In this document: positions 52,986 to 64,000 of the stretch, piece after piece
Position numbering within the stretch: position 1 is the first letter of the stretch
Layout: each line of letters starts with the position of its first letter
NCBI GenBank assembly: GCA_963758495.1
Contig: CAVWVI010000003.1
Location: 1,312,001 to 1,376,000 of the forward strand
Direction: 5' to 3'
Source of the DNA: Oligoflexia bacterium
GTDB taxonomy: Bacteria; Bdellovibrionota; UBA1018
Length of the DNA: 64,000 nt
Program-made: the position numbers and the translations under genes
The notes under the pieces: model-generated
Seen by the model: only the letters and a program-made list of their open reading frames with translations
Told to the model about the DNA's origin: nothing
Database searches by the model: none

Positions 52986-53759
52986 ATGAATATTTACGTG
53001 TGTATCAAACAAGTTCCAGACACTGAAACCAAAATTAAATTAAATGCCGATCAGAGTGGCATCGATACCACAGGGATTAAGTGGATTATGTCCCCTTATG
53101 ATGAGTTGGCTGTCGAAGAGGCGCTCCGATTAAAAGAAAAAAATCCAGGAAGCACTGTTACGGTACTATCAGCAGGTCCAGCGCGAGTGACTGAGGCTAT
53201 CAGAACCGCTCTTGCGATGGGGGCTGACAATGGAATTCATGTTGAAATTCCAGAGTCCGCAGATAGTAATCTTGCCGCAAAAGCACTTGCAGGTGCTCTT
53301 AAAAAGGAAAGTAAAGTAGATATTATATTCACAGGGAAAGAAGCAATTGATGATGGTGCCGCTCAAGTCAGCCAGCTCATTGCAGAATATTTTGAAATCC
53401 AGTATTTGACAGTCATCTTAAATATCGAATACGGCGCAAACAGCGTTAAATGTAAGAGAGAAATTGAGGGTGGCGCTTTTGAACTCATAGAAGCTCCTAT
53501 GCCGGTTCTTATTGCAGCGCAAAAGGGGCTAAATGAGCCTCGTTACGCTAGTCTTCCCAATATTATGAAGGCGAAGAAAAAGGAAATTAAACTCTTCAAA
53601 ATGGTGGATGCCGGCGTTTCTGATTCGGATCAGAAAATCCGTTATAAGAATTTTCAACTCCCGCCGCCTAAACAAGCTGGAAAGAAAATCGCAGGGGATC
53701 CTGCCGCGCAAGCAAAAGAGCTCGCTCGGCTTTTACACGAAGAAGCAAAGGTAGTGTAA
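52986..53759 (+). CDS. etfB: Electron transfer flavoprotein beta subunit
   Basis: VCIKQVPDT, ALAMGAD, GKEAID, NEPRY. Confidence 0.93.
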   Translation: MNIYVCIKQVPDTETKIKLNADQSGIDTTGIKWIMSPYDELAVEEALRLKEKNPGSTVTVLSAGPARVTEAIRTALAMGADNGIHVEIPESADSNLAAKALAGALKKESKVDIIFTGKEAIDDGAAQVSQLIAEYFEIQYLTVILNIEYGANSVKCKREIEGGAFELIEAPMPVLIAAQKGLNEPRYASLPNIMKAKKKEIKLFKMVDAGVSDSDQKIRYKNFQLPPPKQAGKKIAGDPAAQAKELARLLHEEAKVV

Positions 53760-53761
53760 TC

Positions 53762-54730
53762 ATGGCTAAAGTATTTATTATTGCAGAACAACGAGATGGT
53801 CGTCTTAAGAAATCCACATTTGAGCTGATTGGAGCTTCCGCCGCGGCTGGAAATGAAACTCATGCTATCCTTCTAGGAGAAGGTGTAGCGGATCTAGCAA
53901 AAGAGCTGGGTCATTATGGCGCAAAAGTAGTTCACTTGGCGCAAAGTCCGGCACTTAAGTTTTATACTTCTGAAGCCTATTCAAAGATTATTATAAATAC
54001 TCTTAAATCAGCATCTCCTGACATTATACTCGCAAGCCATTCACCTACAGGTCGCGATTTAATGCCTCGAATTGCAGCAAGGCTCGGAGTTGGATTAGCA
54101 AGCGACTGCACCCAACTTACTTTTAATGGAAATAAGATCCAAGTTCGTCGGCCCGTCTATGCAGGCAAGGCGACAGTCGAAGTTGAATTTTTAGGAGCAG
54201 GTCCTCAAGTAGCGACTCTCCGTCCCAATGCGTTAGGAATGTTAAAACCAGACACATCAAAAACAGCCGAGGTCATTCAAGTCACCCCTGATTTGGGTGA
54301 ACTAAAAACCAAAGTACTTGAAGTCGCTCAAGGCTCCAGTGGTCGTCCTGATGTCACTGAAGCATCGATTGTGGTATCGGGTGGTCGATCGCTCAAGAGT
54401 GCTGAAAACTTCAAAATCATCGAAGAAATGGCTGACGTGCTCGGAGCAGCCGTCGGAGCATCTCGCGCCGCTGTAGATGCCGGCTATCGCCCTCACAGAG
54501 ATCAGGTAGGACAAACCGGAAAAGTCGTTTCTCCCTCTCTCTACATTGCTTGTGGGATTAGTGGGGCCATTCAGCATTTAGCTGGAATGCGTACTTCTAA
54601 AGTGATTGTGGCAATTAACACCGATGCTGAAGCACCTATCTTTCAGCTCGCTGATTATGGAGTAGTCAGCGATCTTTTTACTCTTGTTCCATTACTGAAA
54701 GAAGAGTTTAAAAAAATCAAAGAACATTAA
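53762..54730 (+). CDS. etfA: Electron transfer flavoprotein alpha subunit
   Basis: [33 protein letters not shown]. Confidence 0.93.
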
Positions 54731-54862
54731 TCATAACTGTTTAAAGGTGACAGACAACCCTAGAGACGAAATGAGAAAACACCATCCGTCTTTACTATTG
54801 CTTGTCACCTTCTTACTCTAAGCTGTTGTATTAAATTATTTATCTATCTAAGATTGGTTCCT

Positions 54863-56839
54863 ATGACTTGGCAGACTTTCGCATTTTTGATCGTTGCAGG
54901 CTCCGCATTTGGTTATTCCGGCTATCGCTTTAGCCTTCTCTTGAAGATGATGAAGAATCATCAAGGAAAAGCCGCAAAGTATGATCAAATCTCCCAACGA
55001 ATTCTAACTACTATTGCCAACGTCTTAGGCCAAAAGGCCGTGCTCAAAAAAAGAGCTGCTGGAATCATGCATGCCACCATTTTTTGGGGCTTCTTAGTCA
55101 TCACCACCGGCACATTAGAACAATTTGCCACCACTCTCTACCAGCCGGCAAATTTTCAATTTATCGGTATAAGTGCTTATTCCTGTTTAGTCTTCCTACA
55201 AGACATCTTTACCCTTGCGGTACTCGTGGCAGTAGGATTTGCCTGTTATCGAAGATATATTATTCGTCCTGAAGGCTTAGGGAAATCGGTAGATGCCAAT
55301 CGCGTTCTCGCGTTAACAAGTTCCCTGATGGTCTCCATTCTTCTCATGAATGGCTTTCATATTTTAGGAATGGATCCTTGGTACAAAACAGCAATGCCTG
55401 TTTCAAATTCCCTAGCTCATTTTTTAAGCCCACTGGGATTCACTCCTTACACAAATGACGTCTTCAGTACTTTTTTTAAGTGGATTCATATGCTCATTGT
55501 TTTGGGCTTTGCGGTTTATATTCCCAGCTCAAAACATCTTCATATTGTAGCCGCTGGACCCAACACATTCTTACGCACTCTGACTCGAGAAAAGGGCATG
55601 AAACCGATCAACTTTGAGGATGAATCGGTTCAGCAATATGGCGCTGCCAAAGTGACGGATTTGAATTGGAAAGATGCCTTAGACTATTACTCCTGCACTG
55701 AATGTGGAAGGTGTCAGGATCTTTGTCCCGCTTACAATACAGAAAAACCCCTTTCGCCGAAAATGCTCATACTGGACCTTAAAAACAACATGTATAGCAA
55801 TAAGGAAAAAATTCTTGCGGGAGAGATCGATCAAGTCTCTCACATTATTGACTCACATGTTACGGAAGACGTGATTTGGGCATGTACTTCATGTCGCGCT
55901 TGCGAAATTGCTTGTCCAGTATTCATTGGACACACCGATAAAATCTATGACATCCGACGCAATCTCGTGATGATGGAGTCACGCTTTCCATCTGAAGTAC
56001 AAACTGTCTTCAAGAATATGGAAACGAATGCGACTCCTTGGGCATTTAGCTCATCCGACCGAGGAAACTGGGCTGAAGGCCTCTCCATTAAAACCATGGC
56101 GGAAAGCTCGGACGTGGATGTTCTGCTCTGGGTTGGATGTGCGGGCTCTTACGACGATAGAAATAAGAAAGTACTTCGGGCCTTTGCGAGCGTCCTTAAG
56201 AAAGCAGGAGTTAAATTTGCGATTCTAGGCACTGAAGAACAATGTACTGGAGATCCTGCTCGCAGAATTGGAAACGAATACCTTTATCAAACACTTGCAA
56301 AAGCAAATATTGAAACCCTAAATCGCTATCAAGTAAAAAAGATTGTAACTGCTTGCCCACATTGCTTCAATACCATCAAAAACGAGTACAAAGATTTTGG
56401 CGGTAACTACGAAGTTCATCATCATTCTCAATTTATTGCCCACCTTATTGCTCAAGGTAAAATCAAACCTACAAAAACTCTCGATGATGCGGTTACTTTT
56501 CATGATAGCTGCTATTTAGGGCGTTGGAATAATATTTATGATGAGCCTCGAAGTGCTCTTAAATCTCTTCCTTCAATCAACCTGATTGAAATGAAAAACA
56601 ATCAGGACAAAAGCATGTGTTGTGGTGCTGGAGGAGGTAGAATGTGGATGGAAGAAAAAATCGGCAAGCGCGTCAATATTGTTCGAACTGAGCAAGCTCT
56701 CGCTACTCATGCCGGCATTGTGGCATCCTCTTGCCCATTCTGTATGACCATGATGACTGACGGGATCAAGTCTAAGGATATGCAGGATAAAGTAAAAGTG
56801 ATGGATATCGCCGAACTCATCGATCAATCCACGCCCTGA
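54863..56839 (+). CDS. Membrane Fe-S oxidoreductase (FadF / ETF:quinone oxidoreductase, HdrD-like CCG domains)
   Basis: N-terminal TMs, CTECGRCQDLCP and CTSCRACEIACP, CCGAGGG; follows etfBA. Confidence 0.85.
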   Translation: MTWQTFAFLIVAGSAFGYSGYRFSLLLKMMKNHQGKAAKYDQISQRILTTIANVLGQKAVLKKRAAGIMHATIFWGFLVITTGTLEQFATTLYQPANFQFIGISAYSCLVFLQDIFTLAVLVAVGFACYRRYIIRPEGLGKSVDANRVLALTSSLMVSILLMNGFHILGMDPWYKTAMPVSNSLAHFLSPLGFTPYTNDVFSTFFKWIHMLIVLGFAVYIPSSKHLHIVAAGPNTFLRTLTREKGMKPINFEDESVQQYGAAKVTDLNWKDALDYYSCTECGRCQDLCPAYNTEKPLSPKMLILDLKNNMYSNKEKILAGEIDQVSHIIDSHVTEDVIWACTSCRACEIACPVFIGHTDKIYDIRRNLVMMESRFPSEVQTVFKNMETNATPWAFSSSDRGNWAEGLSIKTMAESSDVDVLLWVGCAGSYDDRNKKVLRAFASVLKKAGVKFAILGTEEQCTGDPARRIGNEYLYQTLAKANIETLNRYQVKKIVTACPHCFNTIKNEYKDFGGNYEVHHHSQFIAHLIAQGKIKPTKTLDDAVTFHDSCYLGRWNNIYDEPRSALKSLPSINLIEMKNNQDKSMCCGAGGGRMWMEEKIGKRVNIVRTEQALATHAGIVASSCPFCMTMMTDGIKSKDMQDKVKVMDIAELIDQSTP

Positions 56840-57204: not shown

Positions 57205-58206
57205 TTAATTTATTGATCGCCCCCGGAGCAAATCTTTCACTACTCCATACATCACAGAAGGCAAGGCTTCCAGCTCCTCTACCTCTCGAACCACTCCTCT
57301 GCCTCGTTTAGCCATATCTCGACATAGTTCATAACTGGCGCGCTCCCGACCCATTTTTAAAAGTACTAAATGTGGGAATCTCGATGCTAAATAACTGGGA
57401 TCTCTTCCCGCCGTGTATTTTCCATCTGTCAACAGAACCACAGAAGGGGGCCTTCCAATGCCGCTTGCTATTAATGTAGTCATGAGTTTTAACGTCGCCC
57501 TCATTCCGTCTTCAAGATGAGTATAGCCTTGGGCGGGTACGTCCAAGAACCTTTCTAAGAGTTGGAATACAGATATGACTTCATCTGGACGCTTGAGTAT
57601 TTTTGCTTCATTTTCAAAGGCAATCATTCCAATAGGATCTTCAGGGAATTGAAGCAATACTACTGCCAACGCAACAGCCGTAAGTGCTAACTTCTCTCCC
57701 GTCATAGAAAGGCTAGTATCTACCGTCAATAGAAGAGGGTATCGACGATGAACCGAATAACTCATCCAAATATCTGGATCCGTCAGAGGATGAGGAGAGT
57801 TTTCAATCGTCTCATCCAAATCCAAATCCACTTGTTCTGCACTACTTGGAACGTCTCTCCAAGGCACTATTCTCTGCTCCATAGGCCGCACCACTGAGCC
57901 GAGTACTTCTCGAGCTCTCTCTAAAATAGCTTCTGCAGAGATCTTACGTAGATGATTTGCAAGCTTCTGGGAAGAACTCTTGGACTTAAACTCATGGTAA
58001 CGTGTAGCGACATCCCATCCACTGGAGTTTTTTATATCTATTTCTAGCGCATCTGATTCCTGATTAGAACTCGAACCAAAAGTTTCGGGTGGGAAAAACT
58101 GAGGTTTGGGTAACTGATGATCATCTGACTTCTTTGAGTCAAAAATACTACGAAATACATTACGTTTTTTAGTCAGATCGTTCTCAGGTGGCAGCGAATT
58201 TATTTC
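57205..58206 (-). CDS. VWA (MIDAS) domain reading frame, probably entered by -1 frameshift from the AAA+ gene
   Basis: VDTSLSM, GYT and LLTDG MIDAS residues; the frame is open from upstream of the A9G run, but the first start codon is at 57894. Confidence 0.75.
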   Translation of the reverse strand, partial: EINSLPPENDLTKKRNVFRSIFDSKKSDDHQLPKPQFFPPETFGSSSNQESDALEIDIKNSSGWDVATRYHEFKSKSSSQKLANHLRKISAEAILERAREVLGSVVRPMEQRIVPWRDVPSSAEQVDLDLDETIENSPHPLTDPDIWMSYSVHRRYPLLLTVDTSLSMTGEKLALTAVALAVVLLQFPEDPIGMIAFENEAKILKRPDEVISVFQLLERFLDVPAQGYTHLEDGMRATLKLMTTLIASGIGRPPSVVLLTDGKYTAGRDPSYLASRFPHLVLLKMGRERASYELCRDMAKRGRGVVREVEELEALPSVMYGVVKDLLRGRSIN

Positions 58207-59138
58207 TTTTTTTTTACCCCATCTGAAGTCACAGGGTTCAGTACTTCATCCACCCAACCTTTTAATAAAGACTCCATCTCAGATCGTAAAGTTTTACCTT
58301 CGTCTGAATCACGCTCAATTTCAATACGCGTAGGCAATGCCAAAAGCGTGGCAGATAAAAAAGCATCGGAAAAGATCATGCCTTCTTGAATCATGACACT
58401 TGCGATCTCTGCAATACTCAAAGCAGCACGGACAGATGCACCTCTTCTTATCCGAGCATGGCTACGAGTCAATCTTGTCAACAAAACTGCCGATACAGTC
58501 AGGCGATGGCCCAAAGTAGAGTCAAGAGCCGGAGAACTCACCCTGAGCCGATCTCCCACGATCCGAATTTCTTCTTCTTCGCTTTGATAATCGAGCACCA
58601 CTAATTCAAACCGATCTAAAATAGCTTCGCTTAAATGTGAGGTCGCTACAAATTCCTTGGGATTTTGAGTTGCAATCACCTTAAATCCAGGAGCTGCTCT
58701 GATTTCGCCCAAACGAGGAACTACGATCATCCTTTCATCAATGGCGGGTAGTAAAACATTTTGAACCCCTTCGGGCAATCGATTGAGTTCATTAATAAAA
58801 AGAACTCCACCTTTTTGCATCGCTTCTACTAAGGGCCCCGGCATAAATGTATCTACTGTAAATCCGTTTTTAATCACACTCGGTGGGTCAAACCAGCCCG
58901 ATAATTTCTGCTCCGAATAACGATTGTCGCCGTCCACGCGAAATACCTGTGACCCCAATTCACTCGTCACAGCCAAAGCTAAATGAGTTTTCCCTACACC
59001 CACCGGCCCTTCTAATAAGATATTCCGATGAGCTCGTAAGCATGCTCGAATCTGTAAAACTTCATGACTACGGCCTACTAACTCTAGAGAACTGTGCTTC
59101 GATAAATGAGATGAGTTATGAGATAAATCCGTAGTCAC
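58200..59138 (-). CDS. MoxR-family AAA+ ATPase
   Basis: LLEGPVGVGKT, LFINELNR, IATQNP, LSEAILDRF; GTG start overlaps the upstream TGA. Confidence 0.85.
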   Translation of the reverse strand: MTTDLSHNSSHLSKHSSLELVGRSHEVLQIRACLRAHRNILLEGPVGVGKTHLALAVTSELGSQVFRVDGDNRYSEQKLSGWFDPPSVIKNGFTVDTFMPGPLVEAMQKGGVLFINELNRLPEGVQNVLLPAIDERMIVVPRLGEIRAAPGFKVIATQNPKEFVATSHLSEAILDRFELVVLDYQSEEEEIRIVGDRLRVSSPALDSTLGHRLTVSAVLLTRLTRSHARIRRGASVRAALSIAEIASVMIQEGMIFSDAFLSATLLALPTRIEIERDSDEGKTLRSEMESLLKGWVDEVLNPVTSDGVKKKK

Positions 59139-60190
59139 TCCTTCGCTGCCTTCCGAATTCGTTCCTCTGCCATCCGATTGGCGACCCATTGAGTGGGAAA
59201 CTTTTCCTCTTCAGCACGATTGAGAATATGAGTAATCGTCTGCTCAATTCGAACTATATGATCAAATGCTCCCGCTCGGTTATAAACACCTTGGACTGTA
59301 TCCTCATAATAAATATTGATCAGGCCCCCAGCATTAATTGCATAATCTGGAGCATAAGTAATTCCTCGGTTCATGATTTCATAATCCAGCTCAGCGGTAG
59401 CCAATTGATTGTTTGCAGCACCTGCAATAATTTTAGACTGAATTCGAGGAAGGGTTTCAGGGCTGATCGATAAACCTAATGCCGAGGGTGCAAAAATATC
59501 GCACTTCACATCATAAATAGCATGAGGAGAAACTATTTCTATTCCGTATTTTTTTACGGCTCGATCAATCATCGCACTGTCGATATCACAGCCAATCACT
59601 TCCGCGCCATCTGCAATCAAGTGTTCGAGCAAATAATAAGAAACACTTCCTAAACCCTGGAGAGCAACTTTCACTCCCTTAAGCGAATTTGCTTTAAAGA
59701 CATGTCGTGTACAAGCACGCATGCCATGATACACGCCCCAGGCAGTTGCAGGAGATGGATCTCCACTCGAACCGACATTCCCTTCGATACCCAGTACATG
59801 TTGAGTTTTAGACTTAATTTGCCTTAAATCATCTGCACCAATTCCAACATCCTTTGCAGTAATATAATTTCCACCTAAGCGATCTACAAATTCTCCAAAT
59901 CTCGCAAGCATTTGAGGATTTTTTTGAGACTTCGGATCTCCTAAAATGACTGCTTTTCCTCCTCCCCAATTGAGTCCTGCAAGAGCGGCTTTATAAGTCA
60001 TTCCTTGAGATAATCGCAATACGTCATTAAACGCTTCCATCTCCGAAGCATAATTCCACATTCTACAACCACCGGTGGCTGGCCCGAGAATGGAAGAGTG
60101 AACAGCAATAATTGCGCGTAGTCCTACCGATGAGTCATTACAAAACACAATTTGTTCAAAACCATCCGTTTGAATTTTCTCAAAGATCAT
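59135..60190 (-). CDS. Leu/Phe/Val dehydrogenase
   Basis: GPATGGCR, GMTYK, GGGKAVI, GDPSPATAWGV, QGLGSV, GAANNQL, NAGGLI. Confidence 0.9.
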   Translation of the reverse strand: MIFEKIQTDGFEQIVFCNDSSVGLRAIIAVHSSILGPATGGCRMWNYASEMEAFNDVLRLSQGMTYKAALAGLNWGGGKAVILGDPKSQKNPQMLARFGEFVDRLGGNYITAKDVGIGADDLRQIKSKTQHVLGIEGNVGSSGDPSPATAWGVYHGMRACTRHVFKANSLKGVKVALQGLGSVSYYLLEHLIADGAEVIGCDIDSAMIDRAVKKYGIEIVSPHAIYDVKCDIFAPSALGLSISPETLPRIQSKIIAGAANNQLATAELDYEIMNRGITYAPDYAINAGGLINIYYEDTVQGVYNRAGAFDHIVRIEQTITHILNRAEEEKFPTQWVANRMAEERIRKAAKE

Positions 60191-60723: not shown

Positions 60724-62262
60724 CTATGTCCAGTTGAGCCCTGGGGTTTTAGCCGCCAGTTGTGCGGTTGATTGAATTTCAGCGACTTCAAGTGAGGCAG
60801 TCGGCGTAGTACAGTAAAGTGTCGCATTCACTGCTGTGGGAAAATGGTTCCCACTCTTTTTCAGTCCACCAAAAGGAAGTCGAGAAGATGCACCTACAGT
60901 TGATTTATTCCAATTAATTAAACCCATCTCTAAACCATCCCAGCACTTTTCATAAACAGCCCTACTCTGAGAGAAAATACTCGCGACTAGGCCGTACTGG
61001 GTTACATTGGCTTGCGCGATCGCTTCGTCCAATTCTGAAACTCCCTGAATACATACATTAGGTGCAAATAATTCTGTCTGCTGATAGGTGCTTTTTCTCG
61101 CTTGCTCAAGCGAAAGTTCCTTAATCCAACAAATTGACGGAGTCACATAATTTCCATTTACAGAAAGCTCTAGCGCCTTGCCCCGCATGATCAATTCACA
61201 GCCTTCTCGTGAGGCGATTCCCAAAAATTTCGTGTACCGATCCATAGAACCTTGATCAATCAAGGGCCCCATAAAGGGATTATCCAATGGATGACCAATC
61301 GAAAATGACTTAGCTCGTTGATGAAATTTTTCTGTAAATTGTTCCAAAATCTTATGTTGAACTAGAATTCGACTTGTCGCACTACATCGTTGTCCTGCGG
61401 TCAAAAAGGCTCCCATGAGCGTTTCATAAACAGCACCCTCGATGTCAGCATCTTCCCAGACAATAGTGGCATTCTTTCCACCCATTTCAAGAACAAGCAA
61501 CTTCCAATGTTGCTGAAGAGTATCTTGTTTAATGCGAGTCCCTACCTCGTATGAGCCCGTAAAAAGAACTCCGTGAACTCCCTCATGAACACATAGACGC
61601 CGCCCAACTTCCTTTTCACCTTGAATTAAATTAAACACTCCTGGCGGAAAGCCTGCTTCTTGAAAGCATTCTGCCATCAACTGCCCCACCATAGGGGCTT
61701 TTTCAGAAGGCTTAAAAACGAGGGTATTGCCCGTCAGTAAAGCAGGAACAATATGCCCGTTAGGCAAATGACCTGGAAAATTAAAAGGACCAATCACAGC
61801 CATAACGCCTAGAGGTCGATATTTACAAACCCCTCGTGTATTTTCCATGATTTTAGGAATTTCGAAGTCGGTAACATACCTCAGAGATTCCGTAAGAGTA
61901 ATTTCTACTTTATTGAGCATAGCAGAAACTTCCGTCCTCGCTTCCCAAGCGGGCTTCCCTACCTCTCTTGAAATCACTTCTACAAACTCTTCCTCACGTC
62001 GCATTAAAATCGATTGGTACTTTTTAAGAAGTTCGGAACGTTCTGAAATTGATTTTCGACGCCACGCAGGAAAAGCCATACGACCTGACTGAACGGCTTC
62101 ATCAACAGATAAATAAGAATATTGAAATTTACCTAATTCATCAGAATAATCCGCCGGGCTTTTACTTACCCACTCTCCTTGTGGATCAAGCGGCGCTTTA
62201 AAATGCCCTTGAATAAAATTACCCCTTGCCGAAACTTTAAAGTTAGATTTCGTCATACTCAC
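60724..62262 (-). CDS. astD: Succinylglutamate-semialdehyde dehydrogenase
   Basis: GPFNFPGHLPNGHIVPALLTGN, LEMGG, AGQRCS, PFGG..KSGNH; follows astA. Confidence 0.85.
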   Translation of the reverse strand: MSMTKSNFKVSARGNFIQGHFKAPLDPQGEWVSKSPADYSDELGKFQYSYLSVDEAVQSGRMAFPAWRRKSISERSELLKKYQSILMRREEEFVEVISREVGKPAWEARTEVSAMLNKVEITLTESLRYVTDFEIPKIMENTRGVCKYRPLGVMAVIGPFNFPGHLPNGHIVPALLTGNTLVFKPSEKAPMVGQLMAECFQEAGFPPGVFNLIQGEKEVGRRLCVHEGVHGVLFTGSYEVGTRIKQDTLQQHWKLLVLEMGGKNATIVWEDADIEGAVYETLMGAFLTAGQRCSATSRILVQHKILEQFTEKFHQRAKSFSIGHPLDNPFMGPLIDQGSMDRYTKFLGIASREGCELIMRGKALELSVNGNYVTPSICWIKELSLEQARKSTYQQTELFAPNVCIQGVSELDEAIAQANVTQYGLVASIFSQSRAVYEKCWDGLEMGLINWNKSTVGASSRLPFGGLKKSGNHFPTAVNATLYCTTPTASLEVAEIQSTAQLAAKTPGLNWT

Positions 62263-62283
62263 ACCCTTTCTAAGATGACTCTC

Positions 62284-63330
62284 TCAATAATAAGGCATAA
62301 ATGCGACTAGATCGTCTTTTTTTAATCCTAGAACTGTTCGTATGATCTCCGTCGAAGGCTCTAAAACATGAATTCGCCCCTCTTGAAGATGGGCCTGAGC
62401 AGCAATCGCCCGAAATTCTCCTGGCTTCTGACTCATACTACATAAGATCCCCGATTCACAAATAGGGGAAGCATTTGCTCCCTGAGTAGTGTCTAAAAAA
62501 AGCCGAGTAGCCATTCTCTTAACAGGAAGAATATCATCTACATTTGCCCACAAATGAGGCCCACCATCAAATGGATCGACCTGGTTTTTATATTGAAATC
62601 CAATTTTCCTTAACATATGCAAAACAGGTTCAGTTTCTTTTCCAACTTTTCCAATTGCATTTCGAGCTTCAGCCGGAAGAAAAGTCGTATATATTTTTCC
62701 TGATGGAAAAAGAGAAAAAATAAACTCTTTGTTTTTTCGGCAAAGTTGATCCGCCTCCCCATAATCCATGTTTGTGAATCTTCTACCAATCGCCTCCCAA
62801 AGAGGAGATTGTCCTTTTTTATTCAGGGGAGGGAGTAGCTCTGCAAGAATTTTTCTCTTAAATTTATTTCGATTCAATCCTAGAAATAAAAATCGAACAA
62901 ATGAAATCTGGCGTCCAATTCGACTTTCTGAATTTCTATATTGAGGATCGAGTACAAGTCCACCAATCTCAGAAGGTCCATTAGTGTCGTATTTGAGTTT
63001 CAATGTTCCATGGATAAAACCAGTACTAATTGTTTCTGAAAACTTTTCTTCACTACCCACTTCAAAATAAAAATGCGGTGACTCTACCGAACCATGCTGA
63101 CCTGCGATCATCGAAGTCCCTAAAATTTGATGAGTTTCTATGTCTTCCGCAACAAATATATATTTTCCATCAAACTTATTAGGAGCATCCTCTCGAAATG
63201 AGGCCACTGCTCTAAGAATTTTCTCTCGTAATAAATCTTTATCATTAGGAAGATTAATAAAACCGGGAGTCTGAGAAAATTTTTCTAAAGCATCTAGATC
63301 TTGCTCTTTGATTTCTCTCAGAAGTATCAT
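62284..63330 (-). CDS. astA: Arginine N-succinyltransferase
   Basis: NLP, SEIGGLVLDP.YR, RFLF, AEL, SPLWEAIGR.F, DPFDGGP. Confidence 0.85.
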   Translation of the reverse strand: MILLREIKEQDLDALEKFSQTPGFINLPNDKDLLREKILRAVASFREDAPNKFDGKYIFVAEDIETHQILGTSMIAGQHGSVESPHFYFEVGSEEKFSETISTGFIHGTLKLKYDTNGPSEIGGLVLDPQYRNSESRIGRQISFVRFLFLGLNRNKFKRKILAELLPPLNKKGQSPLWEAIGRRFTNMDYGEADQLCRKNKEFIFSLFPSGKIYTTFLPAEARNAIGKVGKETEPVLHMLRKIGFQYKNQVDPFDGGPHLWANVDDILPVKRMATRLFLDTTQGANASPICESGILCSMSQKPGEFRAIAAQAHLQEGRIHVLEPSTEIIRTVLGLKKDDLVAFMPYY

Positions 63331-64000
63331 AGACACACCTGTTCAATGACTCTTTCATAAAACCCAACAGCCTTCTCAATATGCTCTAATAAATTATGCT
63401 CATTAGGGCTATGACTGTTTCCTTGAGACTTTCCAGGACCAAAAACAATTGCAGGATAGCCTGCTTGAAAATATTGCGCAGCTTCGGTTGAAGTCGCTTT
63501 TTTTGAAAAAGCTGGCTCAATTCCAGCCGATATCATTGCCTCTTTACATATTTTTAACAACTCATCATCAGCCGACAAATTCAAGCTAGGGTTCATTCGT
63601 TCTCGGACTACTGCAACATTTAAACTCGGATAACGAACAGCTATTGCCTGAATCCCCTTTTGAATGGTTTGCTCTATTTCTTGAGGAGGGATTTCTGGCA
63701 AAAGTCTTAAATCAAAATGCAGCTCCATAATTCCCGATCTTTGCTTCAGTTGACCGAAGTTTACTGTAGAACAGGATGGATCATAGGTTTCATCGTTAAT
63801 TTTAGAAATTTGAACGGATAGCTCTTTGAAAAATTTTGTAACCTCTGTGAGACAGGGAAAAAGGTTATCGGGCAAAAACCTCACGCCTGAATCACCTACG
63901 CCCCCAAGTTCTACTTTAAAAGCCTTGTCTGGACTATCAGATCGACTCGACTCTCGAAAGAACCGTTTAAAATCTTCAAACTGATGCGAGGTCAAATAAA
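63327..64000 (-). CDS. M20/ArgE-like deacylase, 5' end outside the window
   Basis: FDLRLLP, TEA, FGPG...SHSPNEH C-terminal M20 motifs. Confidence 0.75.
   Translation of the reverse strand, partial: YLTSHQFEDFKRFFRESSRSDSPDKAFKVELGGVGDSGVRFLPDNLFPCLTEVTKFFKELSVQISKINDETYDPSCSTVNFGQLKQRSGIMELHFDLRLLPEIPPQEIEQTIQKGIQAIAVRYPSLNVAVVRERMNPSLNLSADDELLKICKEAMISAGIEPAFSKKATSTEAAQYFQAGYPAIVFGPGKSQGNSHSPNEHNLLEHIEKAVGFYERVIEQVCL

Follow-up and report, generated by a model that had tools for sequence, protein, structure and literature searches.

Here we describe a locus at which a MoxR-type AAA+ ATPase and a VWA-domain protein appear to be encoded by a single recoded gene, the presumed site of recoding being a run of nine adenines (A9) near the end of the ATPase frame. 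The locus lies in a 64,000-nt stretch of an Oligoflexia bacterium contig (the window), and the evidence is its sequence together with those of its relatives. That recoding of one kind or the other occurs at the A9 run is highly probable. As to mechanism, we favor with moderate confidence a reading in which one gene gives two proteins through slippage of RNA polymerase: the polymerase would probably slip on A9, adding one extra A in part of the mRNAs, so that faithful transcripts would encode a 312-aa MoxR-type ATPase and transcripts with the extra A a 644-aa ATPase-linker-VWA fusion.

The ATPase ORF occupies 58200..59138 of the minus strand, as do all features of the gene pair described below, and its predicted short product of 312 aa starts at a GTG (59138) that shares nucleotides with the TGA of the gene 5' of it; an alternative in-frame ATG at 59189 would give a 329-aa ATPase. 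A check of the sequence showed that the zero frame ends GAT GGG GTA AAA AAA AAG AAA TAA. Within it, the A9 run (GTA AAA AAA AAG), the putative recoding site, lies at 58207..58215 and is followed directly by a G at 58206, with the TAA stop at 58200..58202, 4 nt past the run. The -1 frame, 57205..58245, has 346 open codons; it opens at 58245 after a TGA, reads KKKEINSLPPENDL...GWDVATRY...AILERAREVLGSVVRP, ends in TAA at 57207-57205 and would encode the C-terminal half of the predicted 644-aa fusion. Its first ATG, GTG or TTG is the GTG at 57894, 105 codons past the A run. Pfam places AAA_5 (E 4e-21) in the first half and VWA_2 (E 5e-8) in the second. The zero-frame end, the A9, the TAA and the -1 frame with no start until 57894 had all been reported in an initial annotation of this DNA and were reproduced from the sequence, and the product lengths predicted there are those we calculated, 312 aa by plain reading and 644 aa with one extra A.

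A search with the VWA half gave matches in 52 of 61 near relatives and in 95 of the 301 genomes of the phylum, two of the latter being weak and perhaps due to other VWA proteins, and the ATPase-VWA family was located in Bdellovibrionota. A subset of these matches yielded 122 loci, from which 14 duplicates, four loci at contig ends without the ATPase and one in-frame fusion (L086) were set aside, leaving 103 distinct junctions, whose bearers are kin and not independent of one another. The run consists of 9 A's at 48 junctions, 10 at 50, 11 at four and 8 at one, and the VWA half lies in the -1 frame at 101 of the 103, including three (L111, L114 and L116) that were assigned by frame reading, tblastn having missed their VWA half. 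The zero-frame stop falls 0-43 nt past the run, most commonly at 4 nt (43 of the 103). This pattern persists down to 25-30% identity in the VWA half and over 35-65% G+C. Thus the conserved A run, stop and -1 arrangement that the initial annotation proposed to look for in orthologues are indeed there, with 9-11 A's at 102 of the 103. Chance does not account for this: the same loci hold only 14 other A9 or T9 runs in 542 kb, and in the ORFs of the Oligoflexia genome A9 underlies 46 of the 542 KK[KN] motifs. The two junctions outside the 101 are L122, which has an A8 run with the VWA half in +1, and L021, which is in -1 at the run and breaks a second time further on. Other irregular loci are L108, with a stop codon within the VWA half, and L149, an A10 run with the VWA half in +1. 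The +1 layout of L122 and L149 is possibly an error, or else a transcript with one A fewer or two A's more may be used.

Relatives in which the two halves are naturally fused, another check that had been suggested for this locus, were found among metagenome loci retrieved through an ATPase alignment, namely the best 80 of 556 confirmed ones. Among these 80, 32 are fused in frame, 40 are in -1 and one is in +1; four have no VWA domain in the available stretch and three are cut. After removal of nine duplicates, 30 of the 68 distinct metagenome loci among the best 80 of 556 are fused, 29 of them without A9, and searches for longer proteins added further fusions, P0001 and P0002 among them. In a FastTree tree of 95 rows, with an unreliable root, the metagenome fusions fall together in a single clade (support 99), which also holds two A9-split members, and members with short A runs appear in at least four places. 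Next to the genes of the fused clade lie, among others, those for deoxyhypusine synthase and pyruvoyl arginine decarboxylase, both typical of archaea, and one short-run cluster was named Chloroflexota. The fusion set aside above, L086 (G017:C93), is a second copy of 660 aa with A8 at the junction; slippage there would yield a short product, because both alternative frames stop within 10 codons. Together, the conservation of the junction, the natural fusions and the fact that no start codon of the VWA half is conserved lend strong support to the earlier proposal of a programmed shift to -1 that would give a short ATPase and a long fusion, the products themselves being predicted.

The initial annotation had placed its emphasis on the heptamer A_AAA_AAG and named polymerase slippage on A9 as a second option. 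The site has been borne out; however, the heptamer is in frame at 64 of the 103 junctions, this locus included, whereas the feature common to 102 of the 103 is a run of at least nine A's, which begins in any of the three codon phases. The second option is therefore the better reading. Slippage is likelier than a dnaX-type ribosomal shift because the run length is conserved, in any phase, with neither a hairpin nor a Shine-Dalgarno (SD) element. In the commonest phase 6-7 A's would suffice for the heptamer, yet 41 junctions have exactly nine and only L122 has fewer. No conserved structure was found downstream of the 103 junctions (mean z -0.03, with 6 of 103 below -2, resembling control windows), and there was no excess of upstream SD sequences (10 of 103 at -6 kcal/mol or lower, against 3-19 in controls). 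At this locus the 90-nt fold, at -11.4 kcal/mol (z +0.25), is no better than shuffles, and the stem atctgact/agtcagat that had been suggested downstream of the site is absent from the minimum-energy fold. Within the ORFs of the Oligoflexia genome, long runs are depleted relative to codon-shuffle expectation (A9 0.57x, A10+ 0.04x, T9 0.21x) and in-frame A_AAA_AAG is not (400 against 312 in one shuffle); replication slippage or assembly can alternatively account for this depletion. Nine As or Ts is given as the in vivo threshold of bacterial polymerase slippage (PMC5009743), and the ribosome is described as sliding robustly in vitro on A11 but weakly on A9 and A10 (PMC4363877).

A programmed -1 ribosomal frameshift on A_AAA_AAG or A_AAA_AAA, as in E. 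coli dnaX, by which the fusion would be made from unedited mRNA, is possible but, in our view, rather unlikely. It would account for the A_AAA_AAG in frame here and at the other junctions that have it, for the base that follows the run (G at 79 of the 103 junctions, C at 14, T at 10) and for a VWA half that is nearly always in -1 with a stop close 3' of the run. Moreover, A_AAA_AAA is in frame within the A9 run at all 103 junctions, so that a ribosomal share is possible, and fs-chlD, a recoded chelatase gene taken up below, is described as ribosomal (PMC9227772). For a chelatase cassette, GAC_GTA_AAA_AAA_AAC, which shares with this locus the layout GTA_AAA_AAA_AAN and both run and phase, Table S2 of PMC3711429 lists 40% shifted product in E. 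coli; this shows by analogy that such a site works and does not discriminate between the two mechanisms. Against a ribosomal shift stand the retention of nine or more A's where fewer would be enough and the absence of any stimulatory stem or SD element conserved among the 103 junctions. The relatives with short runs bear on both sides of the question. Seven distinct metagenome loci (among the best 80 of 556) have the -1 layout with only 4-8 A's, which slippage on A9 cannot explain, and this argues against a single mechanism throughout the family. The heptamers seen in the short-run relatives L137, L141, L150, L151, L152, L199 and L200 are A_AAA_AAG, A_AAA_AAA and C_CCA_AAA. Upstream of the run, four of eight short-run loci have an SD-like sequence predicted to pair strongly (-7.8 to -11.3 kcal/mol), but the hairpins at these eight do no better than shuffles (mean z -0.77, none below -2). 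The short-run relatives are thus candidates for a switch of mechanism inside the family.

That the two halves are separate genes, the VWA protein arising by reinitiation or from a non-standard codon and the A run merely encoding a lysine tail, is most improbable. Databases do list VWA proteins of about 280-370 aa as products of their own, and MoxR and VWA partners are often encoded separately (bioRxiv 10.64898/2026.10.09.757910). However, an independent VWA start was rejected, as its position is not conserved and conserved motifs precede the first start codon both at this locus and in many of its relatives: in the VWA frame, a start codon lies within 10 codons of the run at 17 of 102 loci, and at 43 of 76 loci there is none ahead of the PPE motif. 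At seven loci the VWA-frame stop overlaps the A run itself, which pins the shift to the run. Nor is A9 necessary for a lysine tail, since AAG makes up 42% of the lysine codons (1522 of 3609) in the ORFs of these loci, and the natural in-frame fusions of both halves likewise speak against two genes. Equally hard to credit is a truly fused gene whose run varies in length at replication or was mis-sequenced, for although the assembly is in five contigs and a few loci deviate in run length or frame (L122, L086, L149), error or switching would be expected to scatter the frames, whereas the same -1 state recurs in 101 of 103 independent assemblies, with lengths and phases compensating, and only 2 of the 102 runs of A9 or more in the Oligoflexia genome lie between two long ORFs; the conserved -1 state therefore excludes assembly error for the family and makes it very unlikely at this locus.

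The first half contains an AAA_5/AAA_3 domain, nearest to MoxR, NorQ, CbbQ, CobS and GvpN, and its best bacterial sequence matches in the PDB are a MoxR protein (2r44), NorQ, CbbQ and CobS. No named subfamily model was matched at its cut-off (GvpN scored 76 against 267, MadB 50 against 475). Walker A reads GPVGVGKT, and the TQN, DR and GASVR motifs are conserved. Canonical Walker B motifs have the form hhhhDE. In this ATPase the motif is FINELNR (window 58812-58786), with Asn for the first Asp; across the family, NE[LMIF]NR is found in 175 of 177 sequences and Walker A is kept in 172 of 177. Judged from the sequence, the Walker B Asn makes ATPase activity uncertain.

The C-terminal half was modeled with a mean pLDDT of 90. 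The model begins with a loose linker, continues with helices and a beta-rich protrusion, and closes with a VWA domain. The linker (58090..58215, model residues 1-42) is variable and of low confidence, with pLDDT about 50 over residues 1-30, and ends in the conserved motif F-x-P-P-E. It is followed by predicted helices (WDxAxRY, AILERA) and the beta-rich protrusion (57748..58089), which lie ahead of the VWA core. From alignment and fold, the VWA domain itself (57223..57747) has an intact MIDAS (DTSLS at 57720, Thr, Asp), the positions of which (D166, S168, S170, T232, D264) are invariant in all 50 aligned sequences. In a fold search the VWA fold was matched at Z about 20, and residues 92-331 align with the VWA region of NorD (9qh8_G, Z 19.1, rmsd 5.4, 220 aligned); chains of ChlD, CobT and CbbO are absent among the fold matches listed, which excludes none of them. 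The MoxR-type assignment made at the outset agrees with both the AAA+ domain and the MIDAS-bearing VWA partner, and the pair is, on sequence grounds, a putative NorQ/D-like MoxR-VWA chaperone. In the NorQD, CbbQO and CobST complexes, it is the pore of the AAA+ ring that the VWA partner engages (bioRxiv 10.64898/2026.10.09.757910). We infer that the two products of the present gene would co-assemble into an AAA+ ring with a minority of tethered VWA adaptors, the short product filling the ring and the fusion supplying the adaptor, and that the ring would remodel a client enzyme, as in NorQ/NorD or ChlI/ChlD.

In most relatives this client is possibly the B12-dependent lysine 5,6-aminomutase. The kamE gene, which encodes the beta subunit of this enzyme, lies upstream in 69 of the 97 genome loci with enough flank; among the best 80 of 556 metagenome loci, it does so in 16 of 25 split and none of 24 fused loci. 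Of the 301 genomes, 73 have kamD, 68 of these with a VWA match and one more with the ATPase at a contig end. The other four, all of one family, are without this ATPase, and among the kamD genomes only they have, next to kamD, both a MutS-domain gene and a gene clearly resembling KamB, the KamB scores being below cut-off. In that arrangement (L208, L209 and L210, one family), KamB-like and MutS-domain genes stand upstream of kamDE, and a class III aminotransferase gene and kce downstream. The models used for KamB and KamC were NCBIfam NF052386 and NF052383; the KamC model was uninformative, matching ordinary MutS in all 301 genomes and never passing its cut-off.

Lysine 5,6-aminomutase needs an ATP-dependent reactivating component, E2 (PMC9081730). 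Like the ATPase-VWA pair, the KamB/KamC reactivase is found beside kamD-kamE, and within the phylum the two have complementary distributions; no sequence relation between them was seen, and the ATPase-VWA pair also occurs without kamD. The linkage to kamDE, together with the general lack of KamB/C-like genes and the known ATP-dependent reactivation, makes a reactivase role plausible and suggests one for the ATPase-VWA pair in most relatives. In 27 of the 95 genomes with a VWA match, no kamD was found. This genome is one of them: kamD, kamE, kdd, kce and a B12-binding domain were not found in it, at 92% completeness. Only tentatively, and with well under even confidence, do we extend these observations to a widespread family of recoded chaperones, in which slippage would set the ratio of ATPase to adaptor in Bdellovibrionota, dnaX-like ribosomal signals would serve in several branches and fusion would be fixed in one clade, most of the Bdellovibrionota complexes being an unrecognized lysine 5,6-aminomutase reactivase that replaces KamBC.

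The closest parallel is fs-chlD, the 'magnesium chelatase' cluster (Antonov et al. 2013, PMC3711429; Kuznetsov et al. 2022, PMC9227772). It is likewise an AAA+-linker-VWA gene, split in -1 at a poly-A run that a stop closely follows, for which fused relatives exist too and which provides a short and a long subunit per gene, as is predicted here. The likeness to chlD drawn in the initial annotation holds, but membership in ChlD does not: four natural fusions scored 34-46 bits with TIGR02031 (cut-off 499.55) and 36-64 with TIGR02442 (cut-off 779.45), and the two halves in the window gave 31 and 33 bits with ChlD-type models. CobN/ChlH (PF02514) was not found in this genome, again at 92% completeness (the control was positive in 5 of 14), and certain fs-chlD genomes are described as likewise without these pathways (PMC9227772). 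Unlike fs-chlD, the MoxR-VWA gene usually has lysine 5,6-aminomutase as its neighbor and shows no conserved stimulatory structure.

Transcriptional slippage at nine A's is described for Thermus thermophilus dnaX, and two-ORF dnaX genes with 9-10 A's are known (PMC3711429, PMC5009743). In dnaX of the T. thermophilus type, as is proposed here, 9-10 A's are the sole signal and long and short subunits join one AAA+ complex; sister lineages have ribosomal signals instead, as some short-run members of the ATPase-VWA family seem to, whereas the AAA+ clade and the function are unrelated. The NorQ/NorD, CbbQ/CbbO and CobS/CobT pairs, each a MoxR AAA+ protein with a VWA adaptor, are nearest to this pair in sequence or structure. 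They differ from it in being encoded by separate genes, whereas in the present case we predict an adaptor tethered to an ATPase subunit, and in the Walker B residue, Asp there and Asn in this ATPase. The site is apparently a variant of the recoding known from fs-chlD and dnaX that occurs in another family of chaperones.

In a literature search that covered neither the GeneTack cluster list given in a figure nor Antonov 2020, no paper described the recoding of a MoxR-VWA gene; the word 'MoxR' does not occur in the main text of PMC3711429, of PMC9227772 or, within its first 300,000 characters, of PMC5009743. Few bacterial gene families outside mobile elements are known to need recoding, and the ATPase-VWA family would be a large, phylum-wide addition to them, in which chaperones of the MoxR/NorQ type would join chlD and dnaX in obtaining two subunits from one gene. 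Databases appear to split these genes in two with wrong starts, which would account for hundreds of stand-alone 'ChlD' or VWA entries. Furthermore, the natural versions with long runs, with short runs and with fused halves make slippage and ribosomal shift testable against each other within one family, and the kamDE link offers a candidate for a novel B12-enzyme repair factor.

Next to the ATPase, with a 4-nt overlap at its start, lies a Glu/Leu/Phe/Val dehydrogenase gene (59135..60190, minus strand), in the place held by kamE in most relatives. This dehydrogenase was considered as a conserved neighbor and rejected, being present only at this locus (L001, L031) and at L017 (= L061), L093, L145 and L207. 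Upstream of it, window 60724-63995 (minus strand) holds arginine N-succinyltransferase, aldehyde dehydrogenase and M20 peptidase genes and is an amino-acid catabolism region. On the other side, genes at window 52986-56839 (plus strand) converge on the VWA end; they include a CCG/4Fe-4S membrane oxidoreductase gene, a neighbor in 30 loci, and two genes which we take to be those of ETF beta and alpha. A scan for promoters and terminators gave nothing that exceeds shuffles.

A second A9 run was seen elsewhere in the genome (G000:C4:575269-577010, minus strand), between a 389-codon frame, presumably subtilase-like, and a 268-codon -1 frame. A split dnaX was considered for this site and rejected: the gene there is a different one, and dnaX of this genome is intact as a single 557-codon frame. 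The run there may be a further slip site, or else the mark of a broken gene or of an error.
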